A DNA stretch of 5,219 bases from a virus. Taxonomy: Duplodnaviria; Heunggongvirae; Uroviricota; Caudoviricetes. Below are positions 1 to 3,000 of this stretch, in pieces. The stretch lies in the IMG/VR virus record IMGVR_UViG_2660238346_000010; one strand, given 5' to 3'. Position 1 is the first letter of the stretch, and the number at the start of each line of letters is the position of its first letter. Made by a program: the position numbers.

Positions 1-3000
1 AGCGACGGTGATGTTTCCTACAACGTAGGTGTGAACTTCGAGTTTTAATTGCTGAAGGTGACATGAAGTATGACGGCAGGCGCAGGACTCTGGTCTGCCG
101 TTTTTCATGGGGCATAAAAAACAGGAAGGTGCTGCGATGAAGGTGATTCTGGCTACCAGGAATCGCTATCTGGAGTACGGTCTGCAGGCGTTACTGAAGG
201 AACACAGTGTGATACTGGCGAGGGAGTTTTTCATGCCGGAGAACCGCCGTTATATCCCGGACTTTGACGAATCCTGGCTGATAATCAGTGATGGCCTGCT
301 GGGCAGGCTGATGCGGTGTATGTTCCAGGGGCGTCATTTTCTGCAACTGGATGCGGAGTTGCTCCGTGATGGTGAGCAGATAAGTGATGCCATACACAAC
401 GGCGTCTGGACGTATAACAGTGCTGCCCGACCGCTGACGATGTCAGAGATGGTGGTGATGTTCGGTTATGTCTACCGCCAGTCGAGACCCTGTCGCCTTG
501 CCAGTGAAATGGGTATCCACACGAAGACGGTGAATACCTTTCTGTATACGGGAATGGCGAAAAACGGGCTGTATGGTGTGAGCGTCAGACGGCTTGTTGG
601 TGCCTGATGGCGGTCCTGCCGGATGCGCAGAATCTTCTGATAGTTCAGAAGGTGCAGATGATGAATAAAGAGAGATGCCGGACAATCGGAAGAAAACGTT
701 ACACCACAGGCGCAATGTGCTTCATGCTGTTTGTGTGGCTTGGTGGTGTGCTGGCTCTTGTTGCTACAGCTGCGGTGGTAATGCAGTAAAAAAAGGGGAG
801 CAACATGCTCCCCGACCAGAAGAAAGACGTTTGATAACAATTAGTGAGTTGTTACGTCTTGTCCAGAATATCATAGCAACACTCTGTTGCAGTGATACCG
901 ATCGCGATTTTAGCGAATTCCATCATAAATCCCCTGATTTTTAAGCCTGAAGCAGTCAAAGGAATTTCTATGCCCTATATCGATATCACCACGATGCGTG
1001 GGATGATGCCGCGCGTTGTGACATCCATGCTGCCCGAGCATTCCGCTGTACTGGCGGAGGACTGCCATTTCCGGTTTGGTGTTATTACACCAGAACGTCA
1101 GATATCCGGGGTTGAGAAAACATTCACAATTAAGCCAAAAACAATTTTTCATTACCGTGACGATTTCTGGTTTGCATGGCCGGATGTGGTGGATGTGATC
1201 CGCAGTCCGATCGCTCAGGACCCCCACGGGCGTATTTACTACACTGACGGGCGTTTTCCTAAAGTGACGGATGCGACCATTGCCACAAAAGGGGACGGGA
1301 ATCACCCGACATCATCGTATCGTCTTGGGATCCCCGCGCCGACGACAGCTCCTGTCTGTACTGTCCAGCAGGGCGGTGATGTTTCTGACGATAACCCGAA
1401 TGATGATGAAACCCGGTTTTATACGGAAACCTTTGTCTCAGATTATGGTGAAGAAGGTCCGCCAGGTCCGGCGTCTCTGGAGGTAACACTCCGTACTCCG
1501 GGAACTGCGGTACAACTGACGCTGGCTCCGGTGCCATTGCAGAATGCCAGTATTAAACGTCGTCGTATTTATCGTTCTGCCTCAGGGGGAGGAGAAGCCG
1601 ATTTTTTACTCGTGGCTGAACTGGATGCATCCGTGCTCAGTTACACGGATAAAATACCGGCGAAAAATCTTGGACCTTCGCTGGCGACATGGGATTACCT
1701 GCCGCCGCCGGAGAATATGACAGGCCTTTGCCTGATGGCGAATGGTATTGCCGCCGGATTTGCCGGTAATGAAGTGATGTTTTCGGAAGCGTATCTGCCG
1801 TATGCATGGCCGGAAGTGAATCGTCACACGACGGCAGAAGATATTGTAGCTATCTGTCCGCTCGGAACATCACTGGTGGTGGCGACAAAGGGTGAGCCTT
1901 ATCTGTTCAGTGGTGTATCGCCTTCCACAATTTCTGGCTCCAGAATTCCTTCAATGCAGGCGTGTCTGAGCAGGCGGAGTATGGTCGCGATGGAGGGCTT
2001 TGTGCTGTATGCAGGAACAAATGGCCTGGTGTCTGTTGATGCAAACGGTAATGCAGCTCTGGCGACGGAGCAGATTATTTCACCGGAACAGTGGCAGAGT
2101 CAGTTTAATCCGGCCTCCATTGTGGCTTATCCCTGGCGTGGTGAATACATTGCCTGTTACACGAAACCGGATGGTAAGCAGGATGTGTTTGTCTTCAACC
2201 CGGCAGGTATGGATATCCGCTACCTCAGTACACCTTTTGACTGCGCATGTGTTGACCTGGTTAACGATGTTATGCGGGTGGTATCAGGACAAAATATGTC
2301 TGCGATCGCCGGAGGGAGTTTGCCGTCGACAATCAGATGGCATTCAAAGGTATTTTCCCTTCCGGAAAGAACCTCTTTCTCCTGTCTCAGGGTGAAGTCT
2401 CCGACGCCAGAGCGGGTGGGAATTACTGTGCTGGCAGATGATGTTCCGGTGATTCACCTTGCACCTGGAAGCTTTTCGGGAAGCGTTGTGAGATTACCTG
2501 CTGCAACCGGGCAAAACTGGCAGATACTGGTTTCCGGTTTTGGTCAGGTTGAACGTATTACACTCAGTACATCGATGTCGGAGCTGCCGGTATGACAAAA
2601 AAACCGTGGCGCGCAGGAAAGGATTTATCTGCTGTTGTGGAAAATATGGAGATAGGGACAGGACAACGTGGCGATGGTCGTCATGCTTTTGTAACCCGTG
2701 AAGAACTGGTCGGTCTGAAGCTGGCCCGTCGCCGGACTTCAGGTGGTGCCGCATATGCCCTTAATCCGGGGATTGAGATGGACAGCTCTGTAATGGTCGT
2801 TGATTTCCCATCGAAACCTCAGAATTTTAAGGCGACAGGGGGATTTGGCTCGGTACTGCTTGAATGGGATATGCCGAATTATCGCGGTCATTCACTGACT
2901 GAAATCTGGCGGGGTACGGAGGATGACCTTGCTGATGCCGTGCTGGTTGCCACGACGCCGGGGCAGGTCTACGGCGATCCGGTTGATCCGGGATGGTCGG

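Follow-up and report, generated by a model that had tools for sequence, protein, structure and literature searches.

An orphan LuxR-fold regulator and a small membrane peptide encoded behind prophage-borne Eib adhesin genes of Escherichia coli

INTRODUCTION

Why would a prophage of Escherichia coli keep a short regulator-like gene and a still shorter membrane-protein gene beside its tail genes? The question is raised by a 5,219-nucleotide stretch of a tailed-phage genome (IMG/VR record IMGVR_UViG_2660238346_000010), the whole of which is referred to here as the window. Two open reading frames (ORFs) on its plus strand, ORF-156 and ORF-60, had been read in a preliminary description as a LuxR-type regulator coupled to a single-helix membrane peptide. 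Both ORFs prove to be real, conserved, and under selection, and several details of start, hairpins, and module had to be corrected. The answer offered below is that the pair accompanies eib, a gene for a trimeric autotransporter adhesin.

Eib and kindred adhesins bring about immunoglobulin binding, serum resistance, and chain-like adherence in Shiga-toxin-producing E. coli without a locus of enterocyte effacement (LEE-negative strains). Eib synthesis is strongly condition-dependent, and a transcription factor and a membrane micro-protein stand behind each Eib-type gene examined. Eib synthesis responds to static growth, growth phase, oxygen, and temperature (PMC4352079, PMC5450701), and a search of these two expression papers showed no cis-linked regulator named; a term search of a 2026 EibG study likewise returned no mention of a regulator or of LuxR.

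RESULTS

The gene pair makes up the 3' part of the eib cassette

The window belongs to the 933W-like (Sepvirinae) prophages of E. coli. By megablast, at least 80% of it is present in 70 complete genomes, and phage GER2 covers 92% of it at 97.5% identity. Positions 1–1333 are 98.8% identical to positions 2463–3795 of GenBank record AF151675, a P-EibD prophage fragment from strain ECOR-9 with the annotated order orf-191D (tail-fiber assembly), eibD, stem-loop, orf-156D, orf-60D, and an L0124-like gene. The window pair is ORF-156D (154 of 156 residues identical) and ORF-60D (60 of 60), located between eibD and a virion gene resembling L0124 of 933W. Counterparts named ORF-156A/C/E and ORF-60A/C are held in the kindred records AF151091, AF151674, and AF151676 of Sandt and Hill (2000), and P-EibE has a short ORF-60 homolog that is unannotated in its record. 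Near-identity to the deposited genes and a place right behind eib and its stem-loop mark the pair as companions of the eib cassette. Both genes have been in GenBank since 2000, and records AF151091 and AF151674-6 assign them neither a function nor a family.

What remains of the adhesin gene at the edge of the window (Table 1) codes for the last strand of a YadA-type membrane anchor, ending in SDGDVSYNVGVNFEF before the stop codon. A full-length eib in one of the related loci, L001 (6795–8048), matches the EibD structures 2xqh (E 2.5e-31) and 2xzr (E 6.8e-27). Sixty-odd such loci, labeled with L-numbers (L001, L006, L072, etc.), were included in the linkage comparison. In all of these loci that carry an Eib-type anchor, the regulator follows ~90 nt downstream, accompanied by ORF-60 wherever the contig continues, P-EibE included. 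ORF-156 was found in all 13 Eib-type phage records, and anchor, regulator, and ORF-60 occur together in 62 of 5,426 complete genomes. The cassette occupies two settings, one between the tail-fiber and virion genes of 933W-like phages and the other at the far end of lambdoid prophages at differing chromosomal sites. The genes eib, ORF-156, and ORF-60 are a three-gene cassette that moves as a block, and the pair is its 3' part and not the self-contained module that had been proposed.

Neither 933W, VT2-Sakai, nor ~150 other Shiga toxin (Stx) phage records contain eib; an internally deleted ORF-156 and the last ORF-60 codons remain in them. Because viable 933W-type Stx phages keep only this deletion remnant at the same junction, the pair is dispensable for the phage and is cargo, as had been suspected from its appearance. 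The suspicion had been aroused by tail genes as unusual neighbors, which they are not, the site after the tail-fiber genes being the usual place for prophage cargo.

The fossil itself is annotated as a "hypothetical protein" at the junction in 933W-type Stx phages (L074 3432–3713, which is ST933Wp61 of 933W; L003 1–310; H0139 of VT2-Sakai). An internal deletion joins its N-domain to an out-of-frame helix-turn-helix (HTH), and the last ORF-60 codons and the hairpin follow behind. PHROG 2014, a profile of 80 residues, probably models this fossil. In Stx2a phages, homology to the window restarts at position 756, ~30 nt ahead of the downstream hairpin copy.

Regulator homologs also occur outside the cassette. 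Intact homologs with 44–67% identity lack ORF-60, so that the absence of the small ORF beside a conserved regulator, named in the preliminary description as a finding that would speak against the pair, is seen in these distant homologs and not in close ones. In L034 (5001–5543; likewise in L009 and L035–L045), an intact homolog of 180 aa with 67% identity and a C-terminal extension has neither eib nor ORF-60 with it and sits behind the J, lom, and tail-fiber genes of a lambdoid prophage, directly next to an NleG-like effector ORF (~5670–6311) with the U-box motif CPITL. In strain E2348/69 the homolog is marked by the Prokaryotic Genome Annotation Pipeline (PGAP) as pseudogene fragments, yet the ORF reads through. 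Another intact homolog without eib or ORF-60 adjoins hpaBC and a PerC-family gene.

The chromosome of E. coli SI-NP020 carries an island (L072 1100–7517) with two YadA-like genes, an IS110-family element, and an ORF-156 homolog of 44% identity. The island also encodes a bona fide GerE-domain regulator, scoring 37.4 bits, as well as a YqaE/Pmp3 small membrane protein. With the homolog lying behind the two YadA-like genes, trimeric autotransporters and the ORF-156 family are paired a second time here, now on the chromosome.

ORF-156 is a divergent regulator with a LuxR-type fold

Family alignments of ORF-156 open at MKVIL, and PGAP picks the same start. Residues 1–95 (137–421) make up a shortened receiver-like alpha/beta domain, built as beta-alpha-beta with four strands only, and residues 96–156 (422–604) a four-helix HTH. 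Among full-length alleles, at a proportion of synonymous differences (pS) of 0.55, the ratio of nonsynonymous to synonymous change (pN/pS) is 0.32, and it is 0.25 in the HTH, indicating purifying selection.

Searches with the window protein returned no Pfam family at E ≤ 0.1, GerE (PF00196) included, no NCBIfam family at E ≤ 1, solely "unknown function" families among the PHROGs, and nothing meaningful in the PDB by single sequence. ORF-156 belongs to a small family confined to E. coli. A word-indexed search yielded 45 proteins, many of them truncated entries and none with a Pfam domain, and an exhaustive hidden Markov model search of 1.84 billion representative proteins gave only 37 matches, all of them family members or fragments. 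When a 26-member family profile was compared with PDB sequences, only four matches were obtained, each to a LuxR-type protein (three to VqmA and one to GerE, E 0.1–0.3) and aligned on the HTH. Two distant members, P0081 and P0082, score 22.2 bits (E 1.1e-4) and 19.7 bits (E 6.4e-4) against Pfam GerE, below the cutoff of 23.5 bits. So does the 44% identical chromosomal homolog in L072 (21.6 bits), which hhalign aligns at E 7e-38 and to which PGAP gives the name "LuxR family transcriptional regulator."

Structurally, the modeled HTH of ORF-156 superimposes on NarL-C, DosR-C, and GerE at 1.5–1.8 Å. It has the layout of the GerE/NarL-C fold, a four-helix bundle in which helices 2 and 3 are the HTH and the C-terminal helix would serve dimerization. 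The recognition helix KTVNTFLYTGMAKNG carries residues that are invariant in the family, and the KTV motif is present. A LuxR-type assignment is supported by this predicted fold and by the sub-threshold matches of the relatives. The earlier claim of a LuxR/GerE HTH behind a degenerate N-terminal domain holds as far as the fold and a weak, transitive homology are concerned, and it fails for the window protein's own match to the GerE profile. As a structural identity, that of a divergent orphan LuxR-fold regulator is well supported.

The receiver-like domain does not look phosphorylatable. Judged from alignment and predicted secondary structure, and not from residue-level superposition, the place where an acidic pair would follow strand 1 is taken by T7-R8-N9, of which T7 and N9 hardly vary in the alignment. 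An Asp, D52, is retained after strand 3, and past helix 79–88 the domain stops, without a fifth strand or the conserved Lys. Flanks of 8 kb on both sides in L001 and phage GER2, and of ~3 kb in the lambdoid contexts, hold no histidine kinase gene. The two hallmarks of NarL/FixJ response regulators, a complete set of receiver phosphorylation residues and a nearby cognate kinase, are both missing. With the acidic pocket, the fifth strand, and the Lys absent and no kinase nearby, ORF-156 reads as an orphan regulator that is not phosphorylatable.

ORF-60 encodes a short membrane peptide with its own start

The small gene had been described as overlapping the regulator. A 60-codon ORF beginning at position 607 does share one base with the ORF-156 stop (TGATG in some alleles), and the overlap holds in those alleles only; the conserved gene starts at 658 or 661 and ends at 789. 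In loci with a regulator of 67–70% identity, ORF-60 has 41–45 codons and starts 40–50 nt past the regulator stop, with in-frame stops before it. The extension between 607 and 657 has an in-frame pN/pS of 1.13 in a small sample, with no coding constraint, and is probably an untranslated spacer. The core has a Shine-Dalgarno sequence of its own (GAAGG, 649–653), 4–5 nt ahead of the ATG at 658. PHROG 9340, a profile of 43 residues, covers residues 18–60 of the long reading, and the PGAP call runs from 661 to 789.

Selection on this core could be followed through its last 32 codons in nine distinct alleles, which gave pS 0.55, pN 0.145, and pN/pS 0.26; the other two sense frames over ORF-60 gave pN/pS values of 1.3 and 1.75. 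Conservation by synonymous versus nonsynonymous change, which had been put forward as a check on the small ORF, is thereby established, and in its own frame only.

The shared core of the product reads (K/R)(K/R)(K/R)YTxGAMCFMLFVWLG, followed by ~15 hydrophobic residues and the stop. Four to six Lys/Arg residues precede a single helix that runs to the C-terminus, with a Kyte-Doolittle maximum of 2.4 over 19 residues. This composition predicts an N-in, tail-anchored inner-membrane peptide, in line with the single-helix membrane peptide first described. No relatives were found outside its own E. coli family, and neither Pfam nor PADLOC gave a match.

Table 1. Features of the gene pair and its borders (window positions)
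Feature	Position	Strand	Basis
Eib-type trimeric autotransporter adhesin gene, 3' end (TAA at 46–48)	1..48	+	tblastn with Eib anchor; identity to AF151675
eib intrinsic terminator: G+C-rich stem-loop 72–100 and TTTTT 101–105	72..105	+	RNA fold; terminator scan
Shine-Dalgarno GGAAGG, 8 nt ahead of ATG 137	123..128	+	read from sequence
ORF-156, 156-aa orphan LuxR/GerE-fold transcription factor (stop 605–607)	137..607	+	Shine-Dalgarno; conservation; fold
In-frame 17-codon extension yielding the 60-aa reading of ORF-60	607..657	+	non-conserved; pN/pS 1.13 (small sample)
ORF-60 conserved core, predicted tail-anchored membrane peptide MMNKERCRTIGRKRYTTGAMCFMLFVWLGGVLALVATAAVVMQ, 43 aa (42 from 661)	658..789	+	phrog_9340; PGAP; pN/pS
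A-run and GGGGAGC/GCTCCCC hairpin directly past the ORF-60 stop	787..815		fold; terminator scan

Hairpins and transcription signals

Both hairpins that had been seen as brackets of the pair are real, and the upstream one is strong (dG -27 kcal/mol, z -4.7, with none of 200 shuffles as stable). They do not enclose a unit, the first being the terminator of eib and the second having its T-run on the minus strand. A stem_loop is annotated at the equivalent place behind eibA, eibC, eibD, and eibE in records AF151091 and AF151674-6, and in the window only 31 nt separate the terminator from the ORF-156 start codon. The downstream hairpin (dG -15.4) reads as an intrinsic terminator on the minus strand only, 813..795 followed by TTTTTTT; the plus strand has no U-tract. 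Its stem pairing survives a double change in L006, from C:G to T:A, and in lambdoid contexts a dinI-like or ykgJ-like gene runs convergently up to it. The best reading of the hairpin is that it terminates a convergent neighbor and was retained with the cassette.

Three similar copies of this element, TAAAAAA-GGGGAG(loop)CTCCCC-GA with the T-run on the minus strand, surround the eib cassette in L001 (6126–6154, 6296–6324, and 8787–8815, the last corresponding to window 787–815). Possible roles for the copies are insulation against antisense read-in or, as hot spots of recombination, the exchange of cassettes.

Scans of positions 1–1100, on both strands, and of the 3' part of eib showed no promoter-like site, and inspection of positions 40–136 by eye gave poor hexamers with the wrong spacing. 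Rfam RNA families were absent from the window. Just before the eib start codon, outside the window, a TTTGTATACAGATAATTT block that holds the palindrome TGTATACA is invariant in all eib types (L001 6759–6778 and equivalents in L061–L064, L006–L008, and L073), and the upstream region apart from this block is only ~70% alike. EibA-type upstream regions contain a perfect inverted repeat, GAAATTCCGAA-16-TTCGGAATTTC, which EibD-type regions do not have. Block and repeat are candidate operator or promoter elements. The half-site pattern of the repeat is not enriched in the window, with 5 matches against 3.0 expected.

Genes downstream of the pair

Behind the pair lie an L0124-like protein (970–2595) that matches PHROG 511, "internal virion protein," and a tail tip fiber protein (2592–3860; Pfam Phage_Tail_Tip, E 4e-11). 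Two small proteins follow (3875–4156 and 4162–4779) that fall into PHROGs families named "outer membrane protein" and "membrane associated protein (moron)" and match no Pfam or NCBIfam family. At its right edge (5015–5219) the window runs into an IS1 element, of which it holds the left end (InsA zinc-ribbon, Pfam E 5.6e-22); the element cuts an Ail/Lom-family outer-membrane gene (4859–5014) after 51 codons; relatives keep an intact gene of 245 aa (L001 12850–13587). A Hok/Gef family toxin gene lies ~0.2 kb past the Ail/Lom gene in L001 (13820–13960), a place that is beyond the IS1 break in the window.

DISCUSSION

A proposed companion regulator of the eib cassette

We read the pair as conserved companions of the prophage-borne eib cassette, with ORF-156 as a regulator that ties adhesin expression to other genes, and we regard this reading as about evenly poised between right and wrong. 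ORF-156 would be a stand-alone, NarL/FixJ-like transcription factor whose GerE-type HTH binds DNA, probably as a dimer, and whose activity would be set by its abundance or by a partner and not by a phospho-switch. Its position 31 nt behind the strong eib terminator, with no recognizable promoter, points to low-level read-through or late transcription: in lysogens, read-through of the terminator from the eib promoter would supply small amounts of it, and after induction it would come from Q-antiterminated late transcription. It probably links expression of the Eib adhesin with that of other genes, the candidates for control being eib itself or host surface or motility genes. ORF-60 would be an inner-membrane peptide of ~43 residues, with its N-terminus inside and its C-terminal helix as an anchor, translated from its own ribosome-binding site. 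Because intact regulator homologs without ORF-60 exist, the peptide is no obligate companion of the regulator; a service to the Eib-bearing cassette is more likely, for example as a membrane modulator of the regulator or as a helper or sensor for adhesin export.

Several observations weigh against this reading. The profile search of 1.84 billion proteins reached no GerE protein, and the window protein itself matches neither GerE nor any NCBIfam family. No target site for ORF-156 was identified in the eib upstream regions, and the regulator allele does not co-vary with the upstream type, near-identical ORF-156 proteins standing behind EibA-type and EibD-type regions. Intact homologs in the NleG-like and hpaBC/PerC settings have no adhesin nearby, so the regulator is not bound to Eib. 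The strong terminator ahead of ORF-156 leaves its expression in lysogens presumptive. The role given to ORF-60 is a guess, and as the three genes are always co-inherited in the Eib set, linkage cannot tell which of its two partners it serves.

Alternative explanations

A closer bond between the two genes is conceivable, and we think it unlikely: ORF-156 and ORF-60 could be a regulator and anti-regulator, the peptide sequestering or activating the regulator at the inner membrane upon an envelope or growth signal and so controlling eib, comparably to the action of the small membrane proteins MgrB and SafA towards PhoQ. The genes are adjacent on the same strand, equally diverged (pS 0.55 in both), and joined in some alleles by the TGATG overlap of stop and start. 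Eib also responds to static growth and oxygen, a response for which a search of PMC4352079 and PMC5450701 showed no regulator named. The overlapping start, however, is non-conserved and without coding constraint, and regulator homologs at 44–67% identity are intact without the peptide. A fuller version of the same thought, of which we are similarly doubtful, makes the pair a cis-linked control module of Eib adhesins, in which a phosphorylation-independent LuxR-fold regulator gated by the 43-residue membrane peptide sets Eib production and the formation of chains and clumps according to static growth, oxygen, or envelope state. Were it true, the module might cross-regulate host surface or motility genes, and the regulators would constitute a new LuxR subfamily, confined to E. 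coli, whose members go with trimeric autotransporters of prophages and islands. The opposite supposition makes ORF-60 a small membrane peptide with a toxic action, whether like a type I toxin or as a factor for lysis or superinfection exclusion, and ORF-156 an unrelated regulator next to it; this seems to us quite improbable. The ~43 aa, the one strongly hydrophobic helix, and the basic N-terminus of ORF-60 do fit a type I toxin peptide, ORF-60 has no homolog beyond its E. coli family, and the Hok/Gef gene a few kb downstream in relatives shows that such peptides ride here as prophage cargo. A toxin of this kind is nevertheless hard to reconcile with a peptide that is never found alone, only behind eib and ORF-156, and that has no PADLOC match. 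Nor was an antisense or overlapping RNA gene detected by Rfam or a promoter-like site on either strand of 1–1100, in scans that may miss a novel small RNA, and the minus-strand terminator halts transcripts before ORF-60.

Two further explanations would deny the genes a host-directed function, and both strike us as very improbable. That they act in the lytic or lysogenic cycle of the phage, for example as a regulator of late genes or tail assembly, is suggested by their late-operon orientation between tail-fiber and virion genes, where antiterminated late transcription would transcribe them; yet the inducible, plaque-forming phages 933W, VT2-Sakai, and Lyz12581Vzw hold only the deleted ORF-156 and the last few ORF-60 codons, and the same cassette is also found at the far end of unrelated lambdoid prophages. 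That ORF-156 is instead a decaying relic without present function, its LuxR-like fold a trace of history, would suit an orphan family confined to E. coli with many truncated entries and clear decay in Stx phages. Selection analysis disfavors it: a pN/pS of 0.32 (0.25 in the HTH) is maintained among full-length alleles despite differences at 55% of their synonymous sites, and intact copies of the ORF exist in several types of prophage and in chromosomal islands. Of the explanations considered, the companion role in the eib cassette is the one carried forward here.

What the analysis adds

The genes themselves were already deposited as unnamed ORFs. New are the family assignment at the level of fold, a corrected gene model for the micro-protein, demonstrated selection, and the tight linkage to Eib. 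Three annotations would change: the ORF-156 family is labeled "hypothetical" despite its LuxR fold, the micro-protein is often uncalled or called from a non-conserved start, and what 933W-type Stx phages hold at the junction is a fossil of the cassette. Nothing is overturned by the finding; the pair is ordinary prophage cargo of a general kind already known.

Comparison with known systems

The deposited P-Eib prophage fragments carry the same genes as the window in the same order (orf-191, eib, stem-loop, ORF-156, ORF-60, L0124-like gene). The difference lies in the gene model, ORF-60 being annotated there from the non-conserved upstream ATG, whereas the window analysis favors the short form.

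With the NarL/FixJ regulators (NarL, RcsB, EvgA, StyR, VraR, and DosR), ORF-156 shares the layout of a receiver-like domain followed by a four-helix HTH. Unlike them, it has no Pfam match, acidic pocket, conserved Lys, or partner kinase, and its receiver is limited to ~95 residues and four strands.

GadE and DctR (YhiF) are regulators of similar size (~175 aa) in which a non-phosphorylatable N-terminal domain is joined to a LuxR-type HTH. A resemblance of ORF-156 to such acid-resistance regulators had been suggested in the preliminary description and found no sequence support: hhalign of the family profile against K-12 proteins gave a probability of 0.8% for GadE and 0.5% for DctR, and the kinship was rejected. 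GadE and DctR belong to the acid fitness island; ORF-156 has no acid-resistance context. The E. coli O157 prophage regulators PsrA and PsrB, considered as a GadE-like comparison, were dropped, being AraC-type according to a review (PMC10877973).

A precedent is the ipuR-upaE system of uropathogenic E. coli, which couples a LuxR-type regulator with an autotransporter adhesin in one transcript (PMC6083910). IpuR and HyxR of uropathogenic E. coli, compared here by description only, are LuxR-type regulators of small size with a link to an autotransporter adhesin or to an invertible switch (PMC6083910); IpuR has no known phenotype, and its own role is still undefined (PMC6083910). Common to the IpuR system and ORF-156 is the genetic coupling of a small regulator of LuxR type with an adhesin of the autotransporter class, that of IpuR on a horizontally acquired island. 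The arrangements differ: ipuR lies upstream of its adhesin gene, in one operon with it and under an invertible promoter, whereas ORF-156 lies downstream of eib, behind a terminator, in a prophage.

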